Origin: a virus
Taxonomy: Duplodnaviria > Heunggongvirae > Uroviricota > Caudoviricetes
Reading direction: 5' to 3' (one strand)
IMG/VR virus record: IMGVR_UViG_2675903324_000013
DNA: 17,173 nucleotides
Part shown: positions 4,444 to 15,135 of the stretch, piece by piece
Layout: each line of letters begins with the position of its first letter
How positions within the stretch are numbered: the stretch's first letter is position 1
The notes under the pieces: generated by a model
The model's input: only the letters and a program-made list of their open reading frames with translations
Told to the model about the DNA's origin: nothing
Database searches by the model: none
Translations under genes and position numbers: made by a program

Positions 4444-4743
4444 ATGAAACTTAAATATTCTGGCTTAACTGCCAGTGGCAACACTCACCCTAAATTTACG
4501 CGCGGTGATATTTACCGCGACCAGTACGGCGGCACGGTAATGATTAAGGGCGTGGCGGGACGGTGCGTAACTTACCGCCGTGAAGGTTACGAATATGATT
4601 GCGTGATGCCTGTTTATCAGTTCCGGCGTGATTTTTCTCTGGTACAGACCGCGCCGCATAACGTGCCCACCAGCAACGCCAGGGCACGGGCAAACATCCA
4701 GAAGCTGAAAACCATGATTAACGGATTCAGGGGCAAGAAATGA
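4444..4743 (+). CDS. Hypothetical protein (99 aa)
   Basis: GGAGAA RBS; stop overlaps the rep start (ATGA). Confidence 0.5.
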   Translation: MKLKYSGLTASGNTHPKFTRGDIYRDQYGGTVMIKGVAGRCVTYRREGYEYDCVMPVYQFRRDFSLVQTAPHNVPTSNARARANIQKLKTMINGFRGKK

Positions 4744-6137
4744 AAAGCGCACCGAACTTAAAAAAACAGCCTTACGACAAGATGACCGAAGTCATCATTT
4801 TTGCGGGTAGTGATGCGTGGGCACATGCGAAACAGTGGCAGGAACAGGACGGGCGACTGGCTGGCGATAATGTGCCTCCCATTGTGCTGGCTGATGATCA
4901 ACTGGATGAACTGGCAGACCTGAGAATCATCGACGAGGGGCGCTATTGTGTCCGGCTGTACAAGGCAGGCCACATCAGGCCATCAAATATTAATGCCATT
5001 GCGCACAAGCTGGCGGCGGCGGGCGTAACTGATGCGAATTATTACCCCGAAGGGATACACAGCCAGAAGCGGGAGAACTGGCGCGAATATCTGGAACGGG
5101 AGCGGGGGAAAAAGCCAGGGGAAGAACACCACCAGCGAAAAACCACGCTACCGATGAGCGTTGGATCTGCCGGATATGACACGCAATTAGATTACGTGGT
5201 AAAGGGGATTATTCCGGCATCGTCGCTATGCAGCATATACGGGGCAAGCGGTTCCTATAAATCATTCCTTGCGGGTTCGTGGGCGTGTCACGTTTCCACG
5301 GGCCGCCAGTGGGGAGGCCGCAGGGTGGCGCATGGCGCTGTTCTCTATGTGGTTGGTGAAGGCGGTATCGGCGTTCCGCGTCGTGTAAAAGCCTGGGAGG
5401 TTGTGCACGGTGAGCAGGTGAAAAATCTGTATCTGGTAAACCGTCCAGTTTTTCCGGCTGTCCCGCTTGATGTTGATGAACTGGTTATCGCTGCCCGTCA
5501 GGTGGAGCGGGAAACGGGTAAACCTGTACGCATGATTATTCTTGATACTCTGGCGCGTTGCTTTGGTGGCAATGATGAAAATGATTCCCGTGATATGGGG
5601 GCGTTTATCCGTGGGTGTGACGAGCTTAAACGGCGCACAGGGGCCACGGTGCTGGTGGTTCACCATTCCGGCAAGGATGAGACGAAAGGCGCGCGCGGTT
5701 CCAGTGCATTTCGTGCTTCGCTGGATGCTGAATACCGGATACGCAGGGAGGACGCAGGAAGCGAAGCGCTGGTTATCTCATGCACCAAAATGAAGGACGC
5801 GGAGGAACTCAAAGAGGCTGCCTATGATTTGCGGGTGGTGGAGCTTTTTACCGACGCTGACGGGGAGTTAATCACGTCGCTGGTGGTGGTGGATAAGCCG
5901 CGCCCTCCCGTTGAACTGGAGCGCATCGAGGAGGCAGGCAACAAGACGGAAAACCATACCGCACTATGGGGGTGCATCCGTTCACGCACACAGAACGGCG
6001 ACAAGTGCACGATCCCGCTGTTACGTGATGACATGAAACGGCTTGGGTATGACGTGAAAAATATGCGGCGATGGTTAGCCAAACTGGAAAAAGACGCCGT
6101 GATTTACATTGATGGTGATGATGTAGGACCACTGTAA
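4740..6137 (+). CDS. Replication protein: RepA-like / AAA_25-type RecA-fold ATPase with C-terminal presumed DNA-binding region
   Basis: P-loop-like motif GASGSYKS (non-canonical), Walker-B-like RMIILDTLAR, and LVVHHSGKDETKGARGSSAF typical of RepA/AAA_25 helicase-loader proteins; immediately followed by an iteron array. Confidence 0.65.
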   Translation: MKSAPNLKKQPYDKMTEVIIFAGSDAWAHAKQWQEQDGRLAGDNVPPIVLADDQLDELADLRIIDEGRYCVRLYKAGHIRPSNINAIAHKLAAAGVTDANYYPEGIHSQKRENWREYLERERGKKPGEEHHQRKTTLPMSVGSAGYDTQLDYVVKGIIPASSLCSIYGASGSYKSFLAGSWACHVSTGRQWGGRRVAHGAVLYVVGEGGIGVPRRVKAWEVVHGEQVKNLYLVNRPVFPAVPLDVDELVIAARQVERETGKPVRMIILDTLARCFGGNDENDSRDMGAFIRGCDELKRRTGATVLVVHHSGKDETKGARGSSAFRASLDAEYRIRREDAGSEALVISCTKMKDAEELKEAAYDLRVVELFTDADGELITSLVVVDKPRPPVELERIEEAGNKTENHTALWGCIRSRTQNGDKCTIPLLRDDMKRLGYDVKNMRRWLAKLEKDAVIYIDGDDVGPL

Positions 6138-6340
6138 AAAGTGAGTAGCAAAAGTGAGTAATGGTGAGGTTTTTACAAAATATTAACACGATTACTCACT
6201 TTCTCACCTGTATACATACTCAAAAGTGAGGAGTAAAAAAATGCTTATGAAACATGCACATATAAAACACGAAAATCTCAAGCGAGACGAAGTGAGACGC
6301 GTTAAAAAGTGAGGCGTAAAAGTGAGCGCGAGTGAGGAGA
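6137..6340. repeat. Iteron array, putative origin of replication: about 10 copies of AAAGTGAG(G/T) in both orientations
   Basis: GTGAG at 6141, 6154, 6164, 6226, 6292, 6309, 6322, 6332 and inverted CTCAC at 6195, 6203; spacings of 10 and 13 bp; AT-rich stretch in the middle; directly downstream of the Rep gene. Confidence 0.55.
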
Positions 6341-6348
6341 TAACCAAA

Positions 6349-6591
6349 ATGCGCAGAGACAGAACAGCGCCAAAATATAAAGCGTTAGACATGACAGAGC
6401 ACGCTTTAAAGGTGGCAATCAGAACGATAGACCGCCACGCGGGGGAAGGATACGCGAAGGAACATCCCGACCTGATAAGCGCATTCATGACCACAGCGGC
6501 GGCAAACTTTGCCACGCTGACAGAACGGGAGATTGCCGAAGCGGAACAGGTAACAACCATCAACGTTAAAACCGGAGAGGTGGAATCATGA
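6349..6591 (+). CDS. Hypothetical protein (80 aa)
   Basis: ATG at 6349 with GAGGAG 9 nt upstream; the track start (GTG 6322) lies inside the iterons. Confidence 0.45.
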   Translation: MRRDRTAPKYKALDMTEHALKVAIRTIDRHAGEGYAKEHPDLISAFMTTAAANFATLTEREIAEAEQVTTINVKTGEVES

Positions 6592-6902
6592 GCGAACCAA
6601 AATTTGGTGAAAAATTTTACAAGCACAACGGACGGATCACGATTCTGCAAATAAGCGCAGCTACACCAGGCTGGTGGGTTGAAACAGACGAAGGATCCTC
6701 ACCCGTGGCATCATGGGCGCTTTGTGTGCTTAGTTACCCTGACCGCGATGTGTATCAGGATATTCTGCCTGTGATATCCACTGACAAAGGCATGAAACCC
6801 GTAGACATCAAAAAAATGGGTTTTCAGTGCGTAATGCTCACTGAAAAAATGATGGAAGAGATGAAAAAGATGAAAAAGAACAACGCCGGATCGCTTCACT
6901 GA
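6588..6902 (+). CDS. Hypothetical protein (104 aa)
   Basis: ATGA overlap with the upstream gene; GGAGAGG RBS. Confidence 0.5.
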   Translation: MSEPKFGEKFYKHNGRITILQISAATPGWWVETDEGSSPVASWALCVLSYPDRDVYQDILPVISTDKGMKPVDIKKMGFQCVMLTEKMMEEMKKMKKNNAGSLH

Positions 6903-6911
6903 GGTGGCAAT

Positions 6912-7322
6912 ATGACAGCACAAATTGCAGCTTACGGGCGGCTGGTGGCTGACCCGCAGTTAAAGACCACCAGCAAGGGTACACAAATGACGATGGCGAG
7001 TATGGCGGTCCCCCTTCCGTGCAGCCAGGCAGATGACGGAACGGTGACGATGTGGTTATCCGTCCTGGCATTTGGCAGACAGGCCGAAGCACTGGCAAGG
7101 CACCGCAAAGGTGAACTCCTGACCGTGGCGGGTAACATGCAGATCAGCCAGTGGACCGGACAGAACGGGGAAACACGGCAGGGGTATCAGGTTATTGCAG
7201 ACAGCGTAATCAGTGCCCGCGCGGCACGTCCAGGCGGGAACAGACGCAAAACCACAGGCACACAGGGTAATCAGCCACCAGCGGGAGGCGATGACCCTTA
7301 CGGTGACGGTATTCCGTTCTGA
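6912..7322 (+). CDS. ssb: Single-stranded DNA-binding protein (OB-fold SSB with acidic C-terminal tail …DDPYGDGIPF)
   Basis: Pattern …GRL..DP.L…W..V..FG..AE…KGE…V.G…W…GE.R… parallels bacterial SSB; Gly-rich linker; terminal DGIPF resembling the canonical DDDIPF tail; GAGGTG RBS. Confidence 0.8.
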   Translation: MTAQIAAYGRLVADPQLKTTSKGTQMTMASMAVPLPCSQADDGTVTMWLSVLAFGRQAEALARHRKGELLTVAGNMQISQWTGQNGETRQGYQVIADSVISARAARPGGNRRKTTGTQGNQPPAGGDDPYGDGIPF

Positions 7323-7332
7323 GGGGGTGACG

Positions 7333-7569
7333 ATGGTACATGACCGCATAGCGGAGGAACTCGAGGCAAAAGGCTTTTACCGGAGGGCGTCGGCGCGATG
7401 GGGTGAAGTCATGCAACTGGTGGAGACAGACAAGGAACGGCATCAGGTTACGATGCGACGGCTGGAATGTTCCAGGAAGGCACAGAGGCCACCGGAGAAC
7501 TACGCAGACCTGAGAAATGCAGTAAATCGCACTTATGCAGACATGGGGCTGAGCAAATTAGCTGAGTAG
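7333..7569 (+). CDS. Small regulator-like protein (78 aa), possibly PerC-family
   Basis: GAGGGGG RBS; basic helical protein with the motif DRIAEELEAKGFYRRASARWGEVM, which I recall as PerC-like. Assignment is from memory, not searched. Confidence 0.4.
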   Translation: MVHDRIAEELEAKGFYRRASARWGEVMQLVETDKERHQVTMRRLECSRKAQRPPENYADLRNAVNRTYADMGLSKLAE

Positions 7570-7591
7570 GAATATCAGAACCACACCACGC

Positions 7592-7615
7592 AGCCGGAGC
7601 AATCCGGCTTTTTTT
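7592..7615 (+). terminator. Strong intrinsic terminator T1 (stem AGCCGGA / TCCGGCT, GCAA tetraloop, U7)
   Basis: Read directly; follows the stop at 7569. Confidence 0.7.
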
Positions 7616-7710
7616 GCGTCATTTGAAATGGTATGGCGCACTACTGGCTTTTCGTCACGGTCCGGCATAGTTACTATCTGAAACAAACAGACACAACAGA
7701 GGAAAAAACA

Positions 7711-7935
7711 ATGCCGACGAAATTTGATGAGATATTAAAACAGCGTGATAAATACCATGCTGACAACATGGAGACGATGAACATCACTGATTACCGAGCA
7801 TTCCTGGAAACGGGGGCGCTGATTGAAAAGGATCATCATGGTTTTGTTCGTTGCGCGCTATCCGGTGAAATGCTGGCGGTAAATCCTGAACAGACAGATG
7901 CATTGATAGAATTTCTGAAAGGGATCAGGGACTGA
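7711..7935 (+). CDS. Hypothetical protein (74 aa) in a terminator-bracketed cassette (moron-like)
   Basis: ATG 7711 with GAGGA RBS; possible own promoter (-10 TACTAT at 7672-7677); flanked by two copies of the same terminator. Confidence 0.5.
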   Translation: MPTKFDEILKQRDKYHADNMETMNITDYRAFLETGALIEKDHHGFVRCALSGEMLAVNPEQTDALIEFLKGIRD

Positions 7936-7945
7936 GCACCCATAC

Positions 7946-7967
7946 AGCCGGAGCAATCCGGCTTTTT
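7946..7967 (+). terminator. Intrinsic terminator T2, 23 bp identical to T1 (cagccggagcaatccggcttttt)
   Basis: Read directly. Confidence 0.7.
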
Positions 7968-7986
7968 GTTATTTTTTGTAAATTAT

Positions 7987-8016
7987 TTGTTCGTGGTTGT
8001 TCCACGTTGTTCACTG
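7987..8016. repeat. Three tandem 10-bp repeats TTGTTCgtgg / TTGTTCcacg / TTGTTCactg overlapping a candidate late promoter
   Basis: 10-bp phasing; the third unit is a possible -35 (TTGTTC), with TATTTT at 8029-8034 after a 16-bp spacer; the 15-mer ttgttccacgttgtt recurs at 15574-15588. Confidence 0.45.
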
Positions 8017-8071
8017 AGCGGATCGGCATATTTTACCCGAACTGAATCATGATTATTCTCGCCCGTGGTGC

Positions 8072-8226
8072 CAGGACGCTGGGGCCACTTTCCCGCCTGT
8101 TAATGTGCTCGCCAATATTCATTACCAGGCGGGAAAACGATCGGTGCGATTGCTGATTCCCTTATGAAAAACGGTTGAGTTTTTGCCGCGTCCTGGAGTT
8201 CCTTACTTAACCCCAGGACTTTTTTT
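8072..8226 (+). promoter_or_regulatory. Structured leader of the head-gene operon with alternative pairings and a sequestered Shine-Dalgarno
   Basis: 8188-8196 (GCGTCCTGG) can pair either with 8072-8080 (CCAGGACGC, 9 bp) or with 8213-8219 (CCAGGAC, 7 bp). The latter hairpin is followed by T7 and contains the AGGA SD of the capsid gene (8215-8218). A further 9-bp stem with 26-nt loop lies at 8092-8135. Confidence 0.4.
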
Positions 8227-9384
8227 ATGCCGAGAATAATCGAATTACGCCAGCAGAAAACCGCCATTAAAAATCAGATGCGCGACATGCTGGAGAACGC
8301 GGAAAAAGAAAACCGCAGTCTTAACGATGCTGAGGGCGCAAAATTTGACGAATTACGCGCTAAAGCTGAATCCCTCGATAAAGACATTTCCCGCCTTGAA
8401 GCCATTGCAGACGAAGAGCGCAGCAAGCCAGGTAAAAGCAGCCAGACCACTGACCCCGCAGAACTACGCAGCTACATTCTGACAGGTGAAACCCGCGCAT
8501 TAAGTACAGGCGTTCCCGCTGATGGTGGTTATACCGTTATCCCCGAACTGAACACCGAAATCATGCGAATGCTGGCGGATGAGTCCACCATGCGCCGCAT
8601 CTGTACCGTGAAAAAAATCAGCAGCAACGAGTTTAAGCAGCTTGTTTCCGCTGGCGGTGCGACCGTTAACCACGGTGAAGAGGGTAAGGCACGCGAACAG
8701 ACCAGCACCCCGCAGATTAACGAGGTGAGCATTAAGCTGTATCCGGTCTATGCGTACCCGCGCACCACACAGGAAATCGTGGATTTTTCCGATGTGGACA
8801 TCCTTTCATGGCTGACGGGTGAGATTGGCGACACCTTCACGGAAACCGAAGAAAGCGATCTGGTTGTGGGCGACGGTGACAAAAAAGCAAAAGGTTTTTT
8901 ATCCGTACCCCGTGCAGAGAAGAACGACAAAGAGCGTGATTTTGGTACGTTGCAGGTAATTAAACCTTCCGAATCTCTGGCGTGGACATCTGCGGACCCG
9001 CTGATCGACCTGAAATTTGCATTACGTAAAAAATACCGCAAAAACGCGGTCTGGGTGGTTAACTCCACGACGGCGGCAAAACTCCAGAAGGTGAAGAACG
9101 CGAACGGTGATTACATCTGGCGTGACCGTTTACAGGCGGGTGATCCTGATACGTTGCTGGGCCTTCCGGTCGAATATCTGGAGTTTATGCCTGATAACGT
9201 TATTGCCCTGGGTGACTTCAAACGCGGTTACTACATTGTTGATCACGAAACAGGTGTTCGCACCAGACCGGACAACCTCACAGAGCCGGGCTTCATCAAA
9301 ATTTTCACGCAGAAATATTTAGGCGGTGGCGTGGTGGATTCGAACGCGATCAAGATTCTGGAACTGCCACAGGACGACGATTAA
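8227..9384 (+). CDS. Major capsid protein, HK97 fold, with N-terminal coiled-coil delta domain
   Basis: 385 aa; coiled-coil N-terminus (IELRQQKTAIKNQMRDMLENAEKE…) and a C-terminal region paralleling HK97 gp5 (…VWVVNSTTAAKL…GDYIW…LLGLPVEYLEFMP…GDFKRGYYIVDHETG…). Confidence 0.9.
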   Translation: MPRIIELRQQKTAIKNQMRDMLENAEKENRSLNDAEGAKFDELRAKAESLDKDISRLEAIADEERSKPGKSSQTTDPAELRSYILTGETRALSTGVPADGGYTVIPELNTEIMRMLADESTMRRICTVKKISSNEFKQLVSAGGATVNHGEEGKAREQTSTPQINEVSIKLYPVYAYPRTTQEIVDFSDVDILSWLTGEIGDTFTETEESDLVVGDGDKKAKGFLSVPRAEKNDKERDFGTLQVIKPSESLAWTSADPLIDLKFALRKKYRKNAVWVVNSTTAAKLQKVKNANGDYIWRDRLQAGDPDTLLGLPVEYLEFMPDNVIALGDFKRGYYIVDHETGVRTRPDNLTEPGFIKIFTQKYLGGGVVDSNAIKILELPQDDD

Positions 9385-9394
9385 CAGCATACAG

Positions 9395-9414
9395 AAGGGG
9401 CTTAAAAGCCCCTT
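9395..9414 (+). terminator. Hairpin after the capsid gene (stem AAGGGGC / GCCCCTT, loop TTTTAA), possible attenuating terminator
   Basis: Read directly; followed by T-rich sequence. A partial terminator after a highly expressed capsid gene is common in phages. Confidence 0.35.
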
Positions 9415-9423
9415 TAGTGTTTT

Positions 9424-9996
9424 ATGGGTGAAAAAATTATGAAGAGTATGGAAATCCGGTCATCGGAAATCACCACCAGCGGCAGCAACACGCTTACAGG
9501 CTACGTTGTTCGCTGGGATAAGCTTTCAGAACTGTTATGGGGTGAGTTTTACGAAAAATTCCAGCGGGGGGCGTTTACTGAATGGCTTGCGGCGGGTAAT
9601 GACGTTCGCGGCCTGTATGAGCATGACCACAGTATGTTACTGGGGCGCACCCGTTCCGGCACGCTGAAACTGGAAGAGGATGAAACAGGGTTACGCTTTG
9701 AACTGACCCCACCGGATACCAGTACAGGGCGCGACGTTATCGAACTGGTTAAACGTGGTGATATATCCGGCATGAGCTTTGGCTTTCGCTCCCGTAAGGA
9801 TGTATGGGATACCACAACAGATCCATGCGTGCGCACCGTGCTGGTGGCGGAACTGTACGAAATTACCGTTACATCGGTACCGGCTTACCCCGATTCCGGC
9901 GTGGAGCTGGCCCGCCGTTCCCTGTATGAGCAGCACCCCGAAAAAATGCCGCGTGCGGATAATCGCCGCTGGTGGGTGGATTTAGCGGGGGTGTGA
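9424..9996 (+). CDS. Prohead maturation protease, HK97 family (S78/U35)
   Basis: 190 aa with …LTGYVVRWD…FQRGAF…LYEHD…LLGRT…L.LEEDE.GL.FE…ISGMSFGF…VPAYP…; exact start among ATG 9424, 9439 or 9448 is uncertain. Confidence 0.85.
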   Translation: MGEKIMKSMEIRSSEITTSGSNTLTGYVVRWDKLSELLWGEFYEKFQRGAFTEWLAAGNDVRGLYEHDHSMLLGRTRSGTLKLEEDETGLRFELTPPDTSTGRDVIELVKRGDISGMSFGFRSRKDVWDTTTDPCVRTVLVAELYEITVTSVPAYPDSGVELARRSLYEQHPEKMPRADNRRWWVDLAGV

Positions 9997-9997
9997 T

Positions 9998-11209
9998 ATG
10001 TGGCCTTTCAGAAGAAAAAAAGAGCAGCGCAGCATGACGCTTGATGAATTTATGGCGCTGGCTGGCACATCGAACACGGGGGCGGGTGAGTACGTATCAT
10101 CGGGGACAGCGGAATCACTGCCTGCCGTCATGAACGCCGTTACGGTCATCTCTGAGGCGGTGGCTACCATGCCGTGTTACCTGTACCTGGTACGCAATGA
10201 GAAGGGGAAGGAGGCCCGCGAGTGGCTTGATTCTCATCCGGTCGATCACATCCTCAACGAGCGCCCGAACGCATGGCAAACCCCCTACCAGTTTAAGCGA
10301 ATGATGATCCGCCACTGCCTGTTAAACGGTAATGCTTATGCGGTTATTCAGTGGGGGCGTGATGGTTTTCCGGCGGCTTTACATCCTTACCCGCCGCAGT
10401 CGGTGAACGTGGAGCAGACAGGCGAACACAACTGGCGCTATTGCATCACTGACGCCTACACCGGAAACACCCACAACTATTTACCGTGGGAAGTACTTCA
10501 CCTTCGTTACTCCACGGATGACGGCTTTATGGGGCGCTCACCTGTAACCATCTGCCGCGAATCGCTGGGGCTTGGGCTGGCCCAACAACGCCACGGCGCG
10601 AGCGTGATGCGTGATGGCATGATGGCGGCAGGGGTTATCACGTCAGGCGAATGGCTGGACGGCGTGAAGGGCAAACAGGCATTAGCCGCACTGGAACGCT
10701 ACAAAGGGGCCAGAAACGCCGGAAAAACGCCCATCCTTGAAGGGGGGATGAGCTATCAGCAGCTGGGCATGAGTAATCAGGATGCTGAATGGCTGGCCTC
10801 CCGTCGCTTTACCATTGAAGACATCGCCCGAATGTTCAACGTCTCGCCGATTTTTTTGCAGGAATACAGCAACAGCACCTACAGCAATTTCAGCGAGGCA
10901 AGCCGCGCATTTCTCACCATGACGATGCGCCCGTGGCTGGCGAACTTTGAGCAGCAGATAAAAAACGCCCTGCTGGTGGCCTCGCCTGTACCTGGTATCC
11001 GGTATCAGGTGGAGTTTGACAGCGCGGACCTGTTACGGGCCACACCTGGCGAACGCTTTGCCACCTATGAGCGCGGCATCAAATCCGGCGTTATGTGCCC
11101 GAACGAAGCCCGCGAACGTGAAGGACTGTCACCGCGTGATGGTGGTGATGAGTTCAGTCAGGCATGGAAACAGGAAGTAAAAATCAGCGAGGGAGAAAAA
11201 CCGGAATGA
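9998..11209 (+). CDS. Portal protein, HK97 family
   Basis: 403 aa; GGGGG RBS; motifs …LLNGNAYAVIQW…, …GRSP…, …ARNAGKTPILEGG…, …IEDIARMFNVSPIFL…, …NEAREREGLSPRDGGDE. Confidence 0.9.
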   Translation: MWPFRRKKEQRSMTLDEFMALAGTSNTGAGEYVSSGTAESLPAVMNAVTVISEAVATMPCYLYLVRNEKGKEAREWLDSHPVDHILNERPNAWQTPYQFKRMMIRHCLLNGNAYAVIQWGRDGFPAALHPYPPQSVNVEQTGEHNWRYCITDAYTGNTHNYLPWEVLHLRYSTDDGFMGRSPVTICRESLGLGLAQQRHGASVMRDGMMAAGVITSGEWLDGVKGKQALAALERYKGARNAGKTPILEGGMSYQQLGMSNQDAEWLASRRFTIEDIARMFNVSPIFLQEYSNSTYSNFSEASRAFLTMTMRPWLANFEQQIKNALLVASPVPGIRYQVEFDSADLLRATPGERFATYERGIKSGVMCPNEAREREGLSPRDGGDEFSQAWKQEVKISEGEKPE

Positions 11210-11544
11210 ACATAGGGCGACTGCGTGACAGGATAACGATTCAGACCCTGAAACAGACCAGAGCCATGACGGGCGAAATACTCGAAACGTGGGAGGACGG
11301 TCACACACTCTGGGCAAGCGTGAACATGATCAGCAGCAAGGAGGCCATTTCATCGGGCGCAGAGCTGGCGATTGGTACCGTAAGGATCTGGATACGGTAC
11401 CGGAAGGACATCAACGCCACCAGCCGGATAAAGGTCAGTACGGGGCCGCTGGCGGGGCGTGTACTGAATATCATCGGGCAGCCGTTGCCGGATGTCGCCA
11501 GGACACGCCTTGAAATTCTTTGTCGTGAGGGCGCGGAAAAATGA
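11206..11544 (+). CDS. Head-tail joining / head closure protein (Phage_H_T_join-like)
   Basis: ATGA overlap with the portal stop; pattern …GRLRDRITIQ…GE..E.W.D…WASV…IRYR…RI…LEILCRE. Confidence 0.7.
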   Translation: MNIGRLRDRITIQTLKQTRAMTGEILETWEDGHTLWASVNMISSKEAISSGAELAIGTVRIWIRYRKDINATSRIKVSTGPLAGRVLNIIGQPLPDVARTRLEILCREGAEK

Positions 11545-11837
11545 CAGAAGAACTTATCACCCTGGAAGAAGTGAAACTCCATTGCCGTATCGATGGAGAC
11601 GAGGAAGACCAGTTAATCAGCGGATACATTGCCGCATCGCTTGAGGCGTGCCAGATACACATAGGCAGGCGCTTTGATGACGGGCTGGAGTTCACGCCAG
11701 CCATAAAGATTGGCTGCATGATGTTTATCGCTCACCTGTATGAGAATCGCCAGATTGTCGCGGATAACGCAAAAACACGCGTACCCATGACGATTGGCGC
11801 ACTCTGGACGGCTTACCGTGATGTGGGGGTGTACTGA
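11541..11837 (+). CDS. Head-tail connector protein, gp6-like
   Basis: …LEEVKLHCRIDGDEEDQLISGYIAAS…AHLYENRQ…, typical of gp6-like connector proteins; GAGGG RBS. Confidence 0.7.
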   Translation: MTEELITLEEVKLHCRIDGDEEDQLISGYIAASLEACQIHIGRRFDDGLEFTPAIKIGCMMFIAHLYENRQIVADNAKTRVPMTIGALWTAYRDVGVY

Positions 11838-12277
11838 TGCCGTGGCAACCATTAAGACGATGCACAGAACCAGGCTGTAACAGGCGCGTTAAATCCGGCA
11901 AGTGTGAGGAGCACAGGCGGGCGGCATGGCGTGCAGAGGATGCCAGACGAGGACACCGCCGCGCGCGTGGATATTCCAGACAGTGGGACAAATACCGCGC
12001 CATGTATCTGAGTAAAAACCCGTTATGCGTGCGATGCCTTGAGAAGGGGATATATACGCCCGCCGTGGTGGTGGATCACATTATCCCGATTAATGGCGGT
12101 GATGATGTTCTCTTCTGGCCCGAATGGAACCATCAACCATTGTGCCAGGCGTGTCATAACCAGAAAACGAAATGGCTTGATCCGGCAACAAAAAGCAAGC
12201 GTGCCGCAGGTGGATTTCGTGAAGAGGAAGAACGGGCCGCTAACCGCAATAACTGGATGTATGACGCTGATGAATGA
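11837..12277 (+). CDS. HNH endonuclease (packaging-associated)
   Basis: Cys-rich N-terminus and …CVRC…VVDHIIPINGG…NHQPLCQACHNQKT…; GGGGG RBS; located just upstream of terS as in HNH-dependent cos packaging systems. Confidence 0.85.
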   Translation: MPWQPLRRCTEPGCNRRVKSGKCEEHRRAAWRAEDARRGHRRARGYSRQWDKYRAMYLSKNPLCVRCLEKGIYTPAVVVDHIIPINGGDDVLFWPEWNHQPLCQACHNQKTKWLDPATKSKRAAGGFREEEERAANRNNWMYDADE

Positions 12278-12454
12278 GCGGGAACAAAACCGCCTTATCC
12301 GTGGACTTATAAGGCAGCGTGACGCATGGAAGACACAGGAAACAGGGCATAAAGATAAAGCGTCAGGACGCGCAGAACGCATCACAGCGAAGCGATTAAC
12401 CGACCGTGACCGCGAGGTTATGGAATGTTTCCGCAATCGCTGATGAGGCTGTAT

Positions 12455-12540
12455 GACGGGGTGGGGGGCGTTTTCAGGACAAACCCGACCCCGCCGGGCA
12501 CCGAACGCCTCCTCAAATTTTTATGCACGGGAATTTTTTG
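12455..12540. other. Candidate cos / packaging recognition region between HNH and terS
   Basis: GC-rich blocks GACGGGGTGGGGGGCG and CCCGACCCCGCCGGGC followed by an AT-rich tract; position inferred from known HNH-TerS-cos arrangements. Confidence 0.25.
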
Positions 12541-12566
12541 AAAAATAATCTGGCGAAAAAATAAGC

Positions 12567-12923
12567 ATGTCAAGACCACCGAAAGCCCCCGCCTACCTGG
12601 ATGATATCGCCGTGAAGCAGTGGCGGGAAAAATCTAGGCAGCTTGCGGAACGGGGAGACCTGACCCCCGCCGACTGGAGCAATCTGGAACTGTATTGTGT
12701 CAACTACTCCATTTACCGGAAAGCCGTTGCAGACCTTGCGGCGCGCGGGTTCAGCATTGTTAACAGTCAGGGCGGTGAGAGCAGAAACCCCGCATTAAGC
12801 GCAAAATCCGACGCTGAAAGAGTGATGATAAAAATGGCCTCTTTGCTCGGTTTTGACCCGATAAGCCGCCGTAAAAATCCACCGGAAACAGAAGAAGAGG
12901 ACGAGCTTGACCGCCTGGAATAA
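12567..12923 (+). CDS. Terminase small subunit (P27-family-like)
   Basis: 118 aa, …NLELYCVNYSIYRKAVADL…NP…LGFDPISRR…, acidic C-terminus; immediately precedes TerL. Confidence 0.75.
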   Translation: MSRPPKAPAYLDDIAVKQWREKSRQLAERGDLTPADWSNLELYCVNYSIYRKAVADLAARGFSIVNSQGGESRNPALSAKSDAERVMIKMASLLGFDPISRRKNPPETEEEDELDRLE

Positions 12924-14568
12924 GTACGCAGAAGACGTAAAAACGGGCAAAATTCCGGCCTGTAAACGGCTGAAACAGGCCGTTAAACGGTACTTTTCGG
13001 ACCTTGAAAGCCCCCTTTACACGTTCGATCGTGAGGTTGTGGAGCGGTTTATTGCCTTTTCCAGGGTGTGCCCGCACGTAAAAGGGCCGATGCGTGGCAG
13101 ATCCATTGAGCTGGAGCCGTGGCAGCAGTTCGCCTTTGCGTGCATCCTCGGCTTTAAGGTTAAGGCCACCGGACGGCGCAAATACACGAGCGCCTTTATC
13201 GAAGTGCCGCGCAAAAATGCGAAATCCACGACCGCCGCGATTCTGGCTAACTGGTTTCTGATTATGGAGAACGGGCAGCAGGATATTTACACCGCAGCGG
13301 TGAGCCGTGACCAGGCGCGGATCGTTTTTGATGATGCGCGTCAGATGTGCCTTTTATCCCGACCGTTACGCAGGCGGGTGAATATTCAGGCCCACAAGGT
13401 GATGCACCCGAAAAGCAACAGCCTGTTAAAGCCGCTGGCAGCAAAAGCGGCAACCATCGAGGGCACAAACCCAAGCCTTTCCATCGTGGACGAATACCAC
13501 CTACACCCCGATAACGGCGTTTATTCCGCGCTTGAGCTGGGGATGGGCGCACGTCCCGAAGGGCTGTTATTTGCCATTACCACATCGGGCAGTAACGTCG
13601 TTTCAGCCTGTAAGCAGCACTATGATTATTGCTGCCAGATCCTGGACGGCGAAGAGGTCAACGATTCAATTTTTGTGCTGATTTACGAGCTGGACGACGA
13701 AAACGAGGTTGATGATCCGGCGATGTGGATAAAGGCTAACCCTAACATCGATGTTTCCGTGGATCGTGAAAAACTGGCCTCAACCATCCAGAAAGCGCGG
13801 GGTATTCCGTCGCAATGGGTGGAGATGATGACAAAGCGATTTAATATCTGGTGCCAGGGGGCTACCCCGTGGATGGGTAACGGCGCATGGGCTGAGTGTG
13901 CCGGAACGTTCACGGAGGAAGATTTACACGGGCAGGAGTGTTACGCGGGGCTGGACTTATCATCAACCAGCGATATTTCCAGCGTGTGCTATGCCTTTCC
14001 GGTCGGTAAAAATATCATGCTGGTTTCCCGTCATTATCTGCCGGAGTTCCAGCTACAGAACCCCGCCAATAAAAACCGCGCTGTCTATCGCCAGTGGGCT
14101 AAAGCGGGCTGGATACGCACAACGCCAGGTGACTGCATTGATTACGACCGGATCAGAGATGACATCATGCAGGATGCGGAGAAATTTAATATCAGGCTGG
14201 TGGGCTTTGATACGTGGAACGCCACGCATCTCAGGACGCAATTACAGGGGGCTGGTTTTGAGGTGGAGCCGTTCCCGCAAACCTACCTCAGATTCAGTCC
14301 GGCGGCGAAATCGTTCGAAGTTTTTGTTAACCGCAGGGTGATTGTGCATCGTGGCGATCCGGTGTTGTCCTGGTCGATGAGTAACGTCGTGATGCAGAGT
14401 GACGCGAACGCCAATATCAAGCCGAACAAGAAAAAATCACCGAACAAGATAGACCCGAGCGTAGCGGCGCTGATGGCGTTTGGTACATTCCAGGCAGAGC
14501 ATGAGGATTTTGCTTTTGATATAAGCGACAGCCACCGCCAGAAACTGGAAGAATTTAGCGGGGTGTAA
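12907..14568 (+). CDS. Terminase large subunit (ATPase-nuclease)
   Basis: 553 aa; apparent TTG start at 12907 overlapping the terS end by 17 nt, with AGAGGA upstream; N-terminal pattern …W..YAEDV.TGKI…, then ATPase and nuclease-like regions. Confidence 0.9.
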   Translation: MTAWNKYAEDVKTGKIPACKRLKQAVKRYFSDLESPLYTFDREVVERFIAFSRVCPHVKGPMRGRSIELEPWQQFAFACILGFKVKATGRRKYTSAFIEVPRKNAKSTTAAILANWFLIMENGQQDIYTAAVSRDQARIVFDDARQMCLLSRPLRRRVNIQAHKVMHPKSNSLLKPLAAKAATIEGTNPSLSIVDEYHLHPDNGVYSALELGMGARPEGLLFAITTSGSNVVSACKQHYDYCCQILDGEEVNDSIFVLIYELDDENEVDDPAMWIKANPNIDVSVDREKLASTIQKARGIPSQWVEMMTKRFNIWCQGATPWMGNGAWAECAGTFTEEDLHGQECYAGLDLSSTSDISSVCYAFPVGKNIMLVSRHYLPEFQLQNPANKNRAVYRQWAKAGWIRTTPGDCIDYDRIRDDIMQDAEKFNIRLVGFDTWNATHLRTQLQGAGFEVEPFPQTYLRFSPAAKSFEVFVNRRVIVHRGDPVLSWSMSNVVMQSDANANIKPNKKKSPNKIDPSVAALMAFGTFQAEHEDFAFDISDSHRQKLEEFSGV

Positions 14569-14581
14569 TGAGGTCAGCAGC

Positions 14582-14863
14582 ATGACAGAAGCCGAAATAC
14601 TGCGATTAATCCGCCGCGTCTCTGGAATCAGCCAGCAGGCTGACGAACAGACCACGCAGCCGGACAGCGTGACAGCCGAAAATTATGCGCGTGTTGTTGC
14701 TGAGGTGATGCGCCGTGATGGTATCCAGCTTAATGATGCGGATATGCGCGACATACGGATCCGCGTTCTGGAAATGCTGGCCTACAATCGCCGCGTTGAA
14801 CTGTATCGGGAGAAGGAGAAAATCACGTACCACTGGAAGAAGCCGGAGCGGTTACGGCGGTAA
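14582..14863 (+). CDS. Hypothetical protein (93 aa), terminal gene of the island
   Basis: GAGG RBS 8 nt upstream; the stop overlaps the first copy of the CGGCGGTAACT repeat. Confidence 0.5.
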   Translation: MTEAEILRLIRRVSGISQQADEQTTQPDSVTAENYARVVAEVMRRDGIQLNDADMRDIRIRVLEMLAYNRRVELYREKEKITYHWKKPERLRR

Positions 14864-15135
14864 CTTGTTGATTAAAAGGCGGCTCAATTCTGAGCTGGGT
14901 AGCTGACGGCGGTAACTGTTTGATATTCCCGATAACGCAAAATTGCGCTGACTACATCCCTCACATCTGAGGACTGTTAACCAGCAGGCCGGAATATATT
15001 CACAAACTACGAAATTTTCGTAGTTTAATTACTCGCCAGTTTATCGTTAACTAGTTGATATTTTCGGAAACCTCAATTTGAGGAAGTCGGCGCGGTAACT
15101 GTTTTATATTCCCGATAGCGCAAAAATGCGCGGTC
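14854..15135. repeat. Direct repeats R1 (14854-14873, partial), R2 (14905-14952) and R3 (15089-15135) sharing CGG(C)GGTAACTGTTTkATATTCCCGATArCGCAAAAwTGCGC; candidate att copies
   Basis: R2 and R3 match over about 40 bp with 2-3 differences; each carries the near-palindrome CGCAAAATTGCG; palindromes CTACGAAATTTTCGTAG (15007-15023) and CCTCAATTTGAGG (15071-15083) lie between them. Confidence 0.5.

Follow-up and report, generated by a model that had tools for sequence, protein, structure and literature searches.

Positions 4740–6340 of the analysed stretch of DNA (17,173 nt; hereafter, the window) most plausibly form the replication module of a capsid-forming PICI (phage-inducible chromosomal island; cf-PICI), a reading to which we assign a probability of roughly 0.8. 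In this module, a Rep protein with a functional tyrosine-containing P-loop would read iterons through its winged helix and act as a self-loading helicase (feature coordinates in Table 1). A replicase gene followed by its own repeat-studded origin is an arrangement already described for PICIs, and the current view of their replication is not overturned; the parts most worth attention are the aromatic P-loop and a putative self-loading initiator of the RecA-fold (SF4-like) type.

Table 1. Features of the replication module and neighboring genes (window coordinates).
Feature	Position	Strand	Basis or detail
DUF4222 gene	4444..4743	+	PGAP annotation of the 99.8%-identical record; phrog_285
rep, 465-aa initiator-helicase	4740..6137	+	N-terminal module, RecA-fold RepA-like ATPase and C-terminal winged helix (predicted)
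N-terminal module, aa 1–124, alpha/beta fold	4740..5111	+	Identity to EcCICFT073 Pri-Rep; model
RecA-fold helicase/ATPase core, aa 146–385	5175..5894	+	
Walker A GASGSYKS, G168 to S175	5241..5264	+	Tyr173 codon TAT 5256–5258
HHSGKD...ARGSSAF, sensor His pair and putative arginine finger	5661..5711	+	R319 = CGC 5694–5696
C-terminal winged-helix domain, aa 395–465	5922..6134	+	
N441, candidate specificity residue, start of helix 3	6060..6062	+	Codon AAT
Predicted origin of replication (iteron array)	6138..6340	.	GTGAG excess; colinear with L083 origin; cassette boundary 6340
Left iteron triplet	6138..6168	+	Cores 6141, 6154, 6164; spacings 13 and 10
AT-rich segment 1	6169..6193	.	19% GC over 6169–6194
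Core dyad	6194..6231	.	CACTT…AAGTG pattern conserved in related loci
AT-rich segment 2, candidate unwinding region	6232..6281	.	26% GC
Right iteron array	6282..6340	+	GCGAG 6282; cores 6292, 6309, 6322, 6332
SSB gene of the island	6912..7322		

Genomic setting and cassette exchange

Judged by gene content and location, the window is not a plasmid but a cf-PICI, an E. coli phage satellite residing between roxA and phoQ, an insertion site it has in common with EcCICFT073 and EcCIEDL933. The annotation was read from an E. coli island record 99.8% identical to the window, which encodes int, an HTH protein, an icd-like gene, DUF4222, rep, SSB, PerC, HK97 capsid, protease, portal, connectors, HNH, TerS and TerL; tail genes are absent from its annotated gene list. 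PICIs are marked by a terminal int gene, a regulator of the AlpA type, genes that all point one way and a site that prophages do not use; by that record's annotation, its roxA–phoQ location and its DNA identity to EcCIEDL933 outside the cassette, the window agrees with this description. cf-PICIs measure 10–18 kb and carry their own capsid, protease, portal, connectors, HNH, TerS and TerL without tail or lysis genes (10.1101/2025.02.11.637232); they use their own HNH, TerS and TerL to package their own DNA, and EcCIEDL933 is their prototype (10.1101/2022.09.08.507074). The gene list of the window conforms to this description, and its packaging module (6901–14872) is 96% identical to the EcCIEDL933 counterpart.

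DNA identity between the window and EcCIEDL933 was 88–97%, except in 5105–6340: similarity ends at 5105 and resumes at 6340. On this alignment, the interval is a swapped cassette of helicase, C-terminal domain and predicted origin, which form one exchangeable unit relative to EcCIEDL933. Its published counterpart is the EcCIO42 "Pri-Rep" allelic variant (CBG34588, E. coli 042; Fig. S10 in Fillol-Salom et al. 2018, PMC6092414): the two proteins are 95% identical from end to end, GASGSYKS included, with a few substitutions in the C-terminal domain (M442F, A446Y and others). The two origins also agree in their AAAGTGAGG iterons and a TGTATACA-centered dyad, as does the gene order (DUF4222, rep, origin, small ORF, SSB, PerC). 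EcCIO42 is a classical 11-kb PICI at tqsA, whereas the window is a cf-PICI at roxA–phoQ. Transfer of EcCIO42 was not detected, and neither its transfer nor its replication was demonstrated (Fillol-Salom et al., PMC6092414); a published functional test of this Rep type was not found in the literature.

Among named E. coli islands, our Rep comparison covered EcCIO42, EcCICFT073 and EcCIEDL933; the published Pri-Rep types also include EcCIED1a and EcCIRM13514. As in the window, EcCICFT073 and EcCIEDL933 have DUF4222 upstream, a small ORF, SSB and PerC downstream, the N-terminal 125-aa module of Rep, and an origin directly 3′ of rep in which iterons of either orientation surround AT-rich DNA. What differs is the helicase, i.e. 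D5_N/DUF5906/Pox_D5 (P4-family, SF3, canonical GDGGSGKS) in EcCICFT073, DUF927 in EcCIEDL933 and RecA-fold AAA_25 in the window, as well as the iterons, which are unrelated (TGTCTACC, TAACCCGCA and AAAGTGAG, respectively). The DUF4222 gene, with its stop and the rep start overlapping in ATGA, is conserved as the neighbor upstream of rep and precedes the D5/SF3-type gene in EcCICFT073, the DUF927-type gene in EcCIEDL933 and the RepA-type gene in EcCIO42, L083 and L085. E. coli PICIs keep the N-terminal module and the neighboring genes constant while swapping a 'helicase + winged helix + iterons' cassette across at least three helicase superfamilies. Replication modules determine satellite coexistence and the helper or host factors required.

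The exchange also bears on whether the repeats might be a packaging (cos/pac) site recognized by the small terminase that the island encodes, given that cf-PICI DNA is packaged by its own HNH, TerS and TerL (10.1101/2022.09.08.507074) and that terminase sites can be repeat-rich. Because the packaging modules of the window and EcCIEDL933 are nearly identical while their repeats differ wholly, GTGAG in one and TAACCCGCA in the other, the repeats follow rep and not terS; moreover, EcCIO42 has these repeats too, and the 12-kb stretch containing this classical PICI shows no annotated terminase. As the repeats track rep instead of the terminase module, we rejected this reading as exceedingly improbable.

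Iteron array and its covariation with Rep

The array begins 1 nt past the rep stop and consists of two groups and a central dyad. Ten GTGAG cores fall within 6138–6348 (211 bp), where their frequency in the remainder of the window predicts 0.39 (Poisson P = 1.4e-11), leading us to reject a chance origin of the repeats; every other 211-bp stretch of the window holds at most two. Likewise, the AAGTGAG 7-mer is present in eight exact copies in the window (1.5 expected), seven of them within 6139–6326, and a count of eight was reached by none of 200 shuffles. Eight of the cores lie on the plus strand (6226 in the dyad, the others in the flanking groups; Table 1) and two on the minus strand (6195 and 6203), accompanied by the degenerate GCGAG. 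About ten iterons in both orientations had been claimed previously: ten GTGAG cores on both strands agree with this, but only six sites remain when the full 9-mer, AAAGTGAG[GT], is required with no more than one mismatch. With one mismatch allowed, AAAGTGAGK showed no window-wide enrichment (7 found, 6.0 expected); the repeat signal is carried by the clustering and by the exact 7-mer and 5-mer counts.

The 10- and 13-bp spacings noted before recur twice, in one triplet at each end of the array (6141/6154/6164 and 6309/6322/6332), and a 46-nt direct repeat (6135–6180 and 6303–6348) is 72% identical. The AT-rich DNA, formerly described as a single centre, is there but falls into two stretches (6169–6194 and 6232–6281). 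Between these lies the core dyad, composed of an inverted iteron (6194–6202, minus strand), a spacer with TGTATACA at 6209–6216 and a direct iteron (6223–6231, plus strand). The minus-strand site at 6203, within the dyad spacer, is probably not an iteron, because it is unchanged in the E. coli relative L083, whose other iterons are all GTGGGG.

In L083, Rep is 85% identical to that of the window, its C-terminal domain 73% identical and residue 441 is His instead of Asn; the L083 origin is colinear with that of the window and carries GTGGGG at each iteron position, and the counterpart of AT-rich segment 2 is AT-rich without its sequence being conserved. This relation was followed across 80 related loci from many Enterobacterales genera. 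Where the residue aligned to N441 was Asn, iterons read GTGAG[GT] in 27 of 31 loci; His went with GTGGGGA (7/10), Lys with GTGGGGG (28/29) and Ser with GTGCGG (8/8). As the sample is phylogenetically structured, with a few clades carrying most loci, these counts are not independent events. Every iteron class was found with more than one N-terminal architecture. A CACTT-N20-AAGTG dyad with a TATATA-like centre is present in 65 of the 80 loci, about 45–60 nt past the rep stop (2% of shuffles show the pattern); its spacer is exactly 20 nt in 59 loci and 22 nt in the window.

In Gram-negative PICIs the origin directly follows rep, its iterons forming two sets on either side of AT-rich DNA, and the EcCICFT073 rep-ori drives plasmid replication (PMC6092414). 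Together, the position of the repeats at the place of PICI and SaPI origins, the tracking of their sequence with the Rep C-terminal variant over 80 loci and their exchange with helicase and C-terminal domain as one cassette relative to EcCIEDL933 strongly support Rep-specific iterons, i.e. the Rep-dependent origin predicted by the first-pass annotation. Its further suggestion that the C-terminal part of Rep binds the iterons gains from the winged-helix fold and from the N441/iteron-base covariation, but the domain spans ~70 aa, not ~100. The RepA-type cassette may thus hold a simple recognition code between residue 441 and the variable iteron base. If it does, the Rep C-terminal domain would favor AAAGTGAGG over AAAGTGGGG, AAGTGCGGC and AAATGAGG, and the natural series at this residue would be usable to study and re-engineer origin specificity and satellite incompatibility.

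Initiators of iteron plasmids frequently autoregulate through their own iterons. The GTGAG array might accordingly serve mainly as an operator or promoter of the SSB–PerC–packaging operon, bound by Rep or another island regulator, and not as an origin: the last iteron copy overlaps the Shine–Dalgarno sequence (GAGGAG) of the next gene (ATG 6349), and the TATATA-centered dyad could also be a promoter or operator. However, a promoter/terminator scan of 5900–6700 found no sigma-70-like promoter, the position and layout match origins of EcCICFT073 and SaPIs that experiments have validated, and the array moves with helicase and C-terminal domain as a single cassette. Its covariation with the Rep C-terminal domain is compatible with a dual role but not with a Rep-independent one, and we consider a mainly regulatory array very improbable. 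The same scan gave a single terminator-like hit, on the minus strand within rep, no more than shuffles yield.

Rep architecture and the Walker A tyrosine

The RepA-like ATPase recognized earlier was borne out by a Pfam AAA_25 match (aa 146–314, E = 4.7e-44) and by alignment to RSF1010 RepA (PDB 1g8y), which place in Rep a RecA-type core of the RSF1010 RepA, DnaB or T7 gp4-like kind. Helicases of this SF4-like kind work as hexameric rings that use NTP to unwind 5′–3′, and Rep is predicted to be a hexamer of this type. Rep is without the AAA+ SF3 or MCM-like core of SaPI-type Reps, and Rep_3-type Pfam matches, typical of iteron-plasmid initiators (Rep_3/RepA-pi-TrfA WH-WH), are absent; in place of the tandem winged helices of the latter initiators, which lack helicase activity and recruit host DnaB, it has a single winged helix fused to the helicase. 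The Rep monomer was modelled from an 83-sequence alignment (pLDDT 92.7), with aa ~395–465 predicted to fold as helix-helix-helix-hairpin. This model replaced an earlier AF2 model from 21 close homologues (pLDDT 61.9, ATPase below 50), for which Foldseek returned nothing at E <= 1e-3.

The N-terminal module is 63% identical to aa 1–125 of EcCICFT073 Pri-Rep, where the similarity ends, and is also present in the DUF927 proteins P0165 and P0245, making it common to PICI replicases of three different helicase types. It was modelled with a pLDDT of about 85–97 in the order b-a-b-a-b-a-b-a and has no match in Pfam or NCBIfam; the sole lead is a segment of the PHROG 'DNA primase' family phrog_864. 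A Toprim-like reading was not adopted because the invariant acidic residues E17, D43 and D65 precede strands in the model rather than follow them. In Rep as a whole, Pfam and NCBIfam searches detected no primase domain.

The helicase and C-terminal domain are 55–72% identical to those of T7 gp4-like Zn-ribbon/Toprim primase-helicases of 680–730 aa, which occur in Xenorhabdus, Pectobacterium, Serratia, Morganella and others. In these relatives the P-loop residue is likewise Tyr or Phe (70 Y and 5 F in 81 loci), and the stop is followed by the same iteron origin with the same dyad core. At the N-terminus they carry Zn_Ribbon_Prim and Toprim_3; the 125-aa PICI module that the window Rep has there is unrelated to these.

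In phmmer and profile alignments, GASGSYKS of Rep aligned with SPGGAGKS of RSF1010 RepA, so that Y173 occupies the Gly of GKS, as the first-pass annotation had noticed; the canonical Walker A GxxxxGK[ST] is not found in Rep. RSF1010 RepA shares the catalytic Glu, Walker B (DTL), HH and RGSS motifs with Rep, but differs in its canonical GKS P-loop and in having neither N-terminal module nor winged helix. The HHSGKD (aa 308–313) and ARGSSAF (aa 318–324) motifs, previously reported as retained, align with LHHASK...SRGSSVL of RepA, and Rep has the catalytic Glu (E207), the Walker B Asp (D269), H308/H309 and R319. The tyrosine is not peculiar to this gene; the Tyr P-loop is a trait that a large clade of helicases has conserved. 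Y173 is invariant across 21 homologues (59–94% identity), and in a set of 139 cluster representatives, 78 have an aromatic residue here, 48 Gly and 13 another residue. The family as a whole counts ~33,000 members.

A glycine preceding the Walker A lysine is close to universal in P-loop NTPases, and a bulky residue in its place is unusual and could reduce or alter nucleotide handling. Rep might hence be a dead or crippled ATPase, with no role beyond binding the origin as an initiator or loader and recruiting host DnaB; RSF1010 RepA has Gly at this position, and our literature search found no biochemical data on any Tyr- or Phe-type member, nor anything specific on the Walker A variant or on RepA-type PICI initiators. 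Yet K174, E207, D269, H308, H309 and R319 are 100% conserved in the aromatic as in the Gly class of the 139 representatives, whereas dead enzymes normally lose their catalytic residues. Inside the clade, aromatic and Gly residues have interchanged at least about 20–21 times (rough NJ tree), an annotated replicative helicase of a Vibrio phage has the P-loop GPGGSYKS, and the window sequence is found exactly on at least 998 contigs. We consider loss of ATPase function unlikely; by this conservation pattern, the Walker A tyrosine is most likely a conserved, functional P-loop variant of the helicase clade and not an inactivating lesion.

Proposed initiation mechanism

After induction by the helper phage, the winged helix would recognize the AAAGTGAG(G/T) iterons downstream of the rep stop, as the covariation suggests. 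The two opposed iterons around TGTATACA (6194–6231) may then nucleate Rep assembly, probably as two oppositely facing rings, a step modelled on SaPI Rep and viral SF3 initiators. The flanking triplets would increase the local Rep concentration, neighboring AT-rich DNA would melt, and the Rep helicase would load itself and unwind the template. Since Rep has no recognizable primase domain, priming and ssDNA coating would presumably come from host DnaG and the island SSB.

SaPIs provide a parallel in architecture: their Reps are self-loading helicases whose C-terminal winged helix binds 5–6-nt iterons just 3′ of rep, and SaPI Rep1 and PriRep5, like the window Rep, combine a helicase (hexameric in SaPI) with a C-terminal winged helix, their origins likewise having 6–12 iteron copies after rep in opposed orientations with an AT-rich centre (PMC9371898).

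RSF1010 places origin recognition (RepC) and priming (RepB') on separate proteins. To our knowledge, self-loading origin recognition is documented for SF3/SF6 initiators (SaPI Rep, SV40 LTag, E1) and not for DnaB/RepA-type helicases. We tentatively propose, at slightly worse than even odds, that the aromatic Walker A is a working alternative P-loop and that Rep is a self-loading, origin-recognizing initiator of the SF4 type. The fused winged helix may find the origin and two opposed rings may assemble on CACTT-N20-AAGTG, without a separate initiator or loader. A large clade of RecA-fold replicative helicases from phages and satellites may rely on the alternative P-loop, Gx[SP]GS[YF]KS; its aromatic residue might change which nucleotide is used, or tie hydrolysis to the DNA or to the assembly of the ring. 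With the conserved Tyr/Phe P-loop, how far RecA-fold helicases must obey the Walker A glycine rule could be tested at little cost and with a clear outcome.

Iteron array and rep–ori cassette

The intergenic region 6138–6348 contains ten exact GTGAG cores, against 0.39 predicted from the rest of the window (Poisson P = 1.4e-11), and every other 211-bp stretch holds at most two. The 7-mer AAGTGAG occurs eight times in the window, seven of them in this region (1.5 expected; eight reached in 0 of 200 shuffles). The first-pass annotation had noted a replicase followed by a dense iteron array, and these counts confirm it. One of the ten cores, CTCAC at 6203, is probably no iteron but belongs to the dyad spacer in which it lies, or to another kind of site. 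The evidence comes from the E. coli relative locus L083, where it is unaltered although the true iterons all read GTGGGG; both origins share the block ACTTTCTCACCTGTATA without change. Since the last iteron has a dual role, occupancy of the right array by Rep could alter how the downstream SSB–PerC genes are expressed.

Features of the rep–ori region (window coordinates)
Feature	Coordinates	Strand	Remarks
DUF4222 gene	4444–4743		overlaps rep start by ATGA
rep ORF	4740–6137	+	465 aa
N-terminal alpha/beta module	4740–5111	+	Rep aa 1–124
Walker A	5241–5264	+	G168-A-S-G-S-Y173-K-S175
GTGAG cores, exact (n = 8)	6141, 6154, 6164, 6226, 6292, 6309, 6322, 6332	+	intergenic 6138–6348
GTGAG cores, exact (n = 2)	6195, 6203	-	intergenic 6138–6348
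Degenerate core GCGAG	6282
Left triplet			first layout element; 13- and 10-bp spacing
AT-rich segment	6169–6194		second element; 19% GC
Inverted/direct iteron pair	6194–6231		third element; around TGTATACA
CTCAC	6203–6207	-	inside dyad spacer 6202–6223
AT-rich segment	6232–6281		fourth element; 26% GC
Right-hand array			last element; ends in second 13/10 triplet
Last iteron GAGTGAGGAG	within 6330–6351		doubles as Shine-Dalgarno of next gene (ATG 6349, phrog_1231, 80 aa)
SSB and PerC-family regulator	6912–7322 and 7633–7935 region		directly downstream of origin; PerC from annotation of identical record

A 99.8%-identical copy of the window lies between roxA and phoQ in E. coli 00-3076. Its annotation comprises int, an HTH regulator, ash, an icd-like gene, DUF4222, a 'helicase RepA family protein', small ORFs, SSB and PerC, followed by packaging genes (HK97 capsid, protease, portal, head closure, connector, HNH, TerS and TerL), with tail and lysis genes absent; the same genes make up a capsid-forming phage-inducible chromosomal island (cf-PICI; 10.1101/2022.09.08.507074). 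The cf-PICI prototype EcCIEDL933 occupies the same site and is 88–97% identical to the window at the DNA level, save for 5105–6340, where nothing aligns: similarity ends with the N-terminal module of Rep and returns at the end of the iteron array. In that interval EcCIEDL933 (L089:34412–36541) encodes a DUF927 protein of 710 aa, and TAACCCGCA occurs 11 times. EcCICFT073, a classical PICI at the same site, has TGTCTACC/GGTAGA iterons; its Pri-Rep is of the P4-family D5_N/DUF5906/Pox_D5 type, and the loop of this protein reads the canonical GDGGSGKS. Three E. coli PICIs at one site thus have three helicase families (RepA/AAA_25, DUF927 and P4-type D5/SF3) and three unrelated iterons, and share only the first ~125 aa of their Reps (63% identity to EcCICFT073) plus the upstream DUF4222 gene. 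Helicase, C-terminal domain and repeats thus form one discrete, exchangeable cassette; its right edge (6340) coincides with the end of the array, which independently supports grouping 6138–6340 functionally with the helicase.

As the DUF4222 gene precedes rep in all PICIs examined, regardless of helicase type, its product may assist replication as a conserved accessory factor; the ATGA overlap suggests translational coupling. SSB and the PerC-family regulator are likewise kept in EcCICFT073, EcCIEDL933 and EcCIO42.

The last of these is one of four 'Pri-Rep allelic variants' of E. coli PICIs described by Fillol-Salom et al. 2018 (CBG34588; PMC6092414). Its sequence, taken by coordinates from the supplement of that study, encodes a 466-aa 'helicase RepA family protein' that is 95% identical to the window's Rep and likewise has GASGSYKS; the 200 bp past rep contain AAAGTGAGG repeats and the same CACTT...TGTATACA...AAAGTGAGG core. 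By these matches and the EcCIEDL933 similarity, the window is an EcCIEDL933-like cf-PICI backbone with an EcCIO42-type rep–ori cassette. Gram-negative PICI origins lie directly 3′ of rep as an AT-rich region flanked by two iteron sets, and plasmid replication from EcCICFT073 depended on rep and ori (PMC6092414). SaPI Rep, a helicase that loads itself, uses its C-terminal winged helix to bind 5–6-nt iterons right after rep, present in 6–12 copies in opposite orientations with an AT-rich centre (PMC9371898). The window's module belongs to these well-described PICI rep–ori modules, its Rep type being already catalogued as EcCIO42. Our analysis adds the cassette boundaries, a residue-to-base specificity pattern and conserved dyad core over 80 loci, and evidence on the Tyr/Phe P-loop. 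What is new and open to testing is the aromatic Walker A, along with a RecA-fold (SF4-type) helicase that would serve as its own initiator, recognising the origin and loading itself.

Iteron specificity and the dyad core

A one-genome-per-species scan yielded 80 loci (Xenorhabdus, Pectobacterium, Serratia, Pantoea, Kosakonia, Morganella and others) encoding relatives with 52–72% identity over helicase and C-terminal domain; one E. coli and one Enterobacter locus were added, and all proteins were aligned to the window's Rep. Nearly all of the 80 loci contain a short motif repeated 4–10 times within 320 nt of the rep stop, its 5′ AAGTG constant in all iteron classes and its 3′ half variable. The repeat class can be predicted from the residue at the position of N441: Asn goes with GTGAG[GT] (27 of 31 loci), His with GTGGGGA (7 of 10, plus two GTGGGGG), Lys with GTGGGGG (28 of 29) and Ser with GTGCGG (8 of 8), counts that are not independent events, since clades are shared, yet each class has more than one N-terminal architecture. 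In the four Asn-type exceptions, all from Xenorhabdus, the repeats read AATGAGG and the protein has KLEND, not KLE[QH]D, at residue 450. L083 is the cleanest case of covariation: its Rep, 85% identical to the window's overall and 73% in the C-terminal domain, carries N441H, and in its colinear origin GTGGGG replaces GTGAG at each iteron position, save the CTCAC at 6203.

The pattern CAC[TC]T-N(14–32)-A[AG]GTG starts ~45–60 nt past the rep stop in 65 of the 80 loci and appears in 2% of shuffled-sequence trials. In 59 of the 65 its spacer is exactly 20 nt long and centred on (T/C)ATATA or TGTATA; in the window and L083 it is 22 nt. Such conservation points to an origin core of two outward-pointing iterons, ~30 bp from each other, that flank a readily melting alternating pyrimidine–purine element. 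By analogy with SaPI Reps and SF3 viral initiators, the dyad might nucleate two oppositely facing Rep assemblies, with the outer triplets adding cooperative Rep binding and the flanking AT-rich DNA serving as unwinding region. The earlier interpretation as a Rep-dependent origin is thus supported by the array's position 3′ of rep, the cassette unit, the covariation and the match to published PICI origins; that the C-terminus of Rep reads the iterons, also proposed then, is supported by residue 441 tracking repeat class over the 80 loci.

Single Xenorhabdus genomes can contain two or three primase-helicase relatives with an iteron origin, sometimes on one contig, e.g. Xenorhabdus bakwenae (loci L012, L017, L080), Xenorhabdus sp. 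TCT-1 (L006, L011) and X. budapestensis (L020, L025). Copies in one genome can differ in iteron class (GTGAGG vs. AATGAGG), correlating with KLE[QH]D vs. KLEND at residue 450, a divergence that may reflect diversification avoiding incompatibility of co-resident satellites.

Rep domains and the aromatic P-loop

AAA_25 is the sole Pfam domain in Rep (aa 146–314, E = 4.7e-44). Both phmmer and profile alignments pair its Walker A with 'SPGGAGKS' of the RSF1010 RepA helicase (PDB 1g8y), and therefore Tyr173 occupies the position of Gly in GK[ST]; further pairings (window Rep/RepA) are 'VGEGG'/'PAED', 'ILDTLAR'/'VLDTLRR', 'VHHSGK'/'LHHASK' and 'ARGSSAF'/'SRGSSVL'. The first-pass annotation had described the protein correctly.

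Tyr173 is invariant in 21 homologues of 59–94% identity. Scanning all of 1.84 billion cluster representatives with HMMER returned 32,782 relatives, the best 150 of which have G (48), Y (47), F (34), L (7), C (3), A (2) or R (1) at this position. Among 139 representatives with a complete core, it is aromatic in 78, Gly in 48 and other in 13, proportions that reflect selection by similarity to a Tyr-type query and not AAA_25 as a whole. A rough neighbour-joining tree of these 139 gave at least ~21 state changes at position 173, and K174, E207, D269, H308, H309 and R319 are 100% conserved in aromatic and Gly classes alike. The 81 fetched loci have Y in 70 and F in 5 cases. Phage records with this helicase family number 1,336. 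The loop reads GPGGSYKS in a Vibrio phage 'DnaB-like helicase', while Caulobacter and Mycobacterium phage members have Gly. The pattern is what a variant that is tolerated, recurs and is selected in active enzymes would leave, and not a lesion; it argues for a clade-wide functional variant. A literature search found no paper discussing it.

A structure model from 21 close homologues was poor (pLDDT 61.9); that from 83 diverse sequences (pLDDT 92.7) predicts an alternating beta/alpha domain (aa 17–123), the ATPase (aa 150–385) and three helices plus a beta hairpin (aa 395–465). The invariant acidic residues E17, D43 and D65 of the 125-aa N-terminal module are placed at strand N-termini. This module, without any family match in Pfam or NCBIfam, is kept at 63–82% identity in PICI replicases with different helicases (EcCICFT073 Pri-Rep and the DUF927 proteins P0165 and P0245). 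It was also found in a 233-aa protein (P0186). Interaction with a primase, with DnaB or with DnaG is a possible role, as is regulation.

The longer relatives (680–730 aa) carry Zn_Ribbon_Prim and Toprim_3 ahead of the helicase, where the window's Rep has the PICI module; by their domains, they are T7 gp4-like primase-helicases with an origin-binding domain. No domain detected in Rep backs its database names 'Pri-Rep' and 'DNA primase', and host DnaG is the simplest assumption for the primer source. In one E. coli genome, a 563-aa protein (P0001) consists of a Rep 98% identical to the window's with a lambda gpD-like head-decoration domain (PF02924) at its C-terminus. A deletion, or else the assembly, probably fused rep to the decoration gene of a classical PICI.
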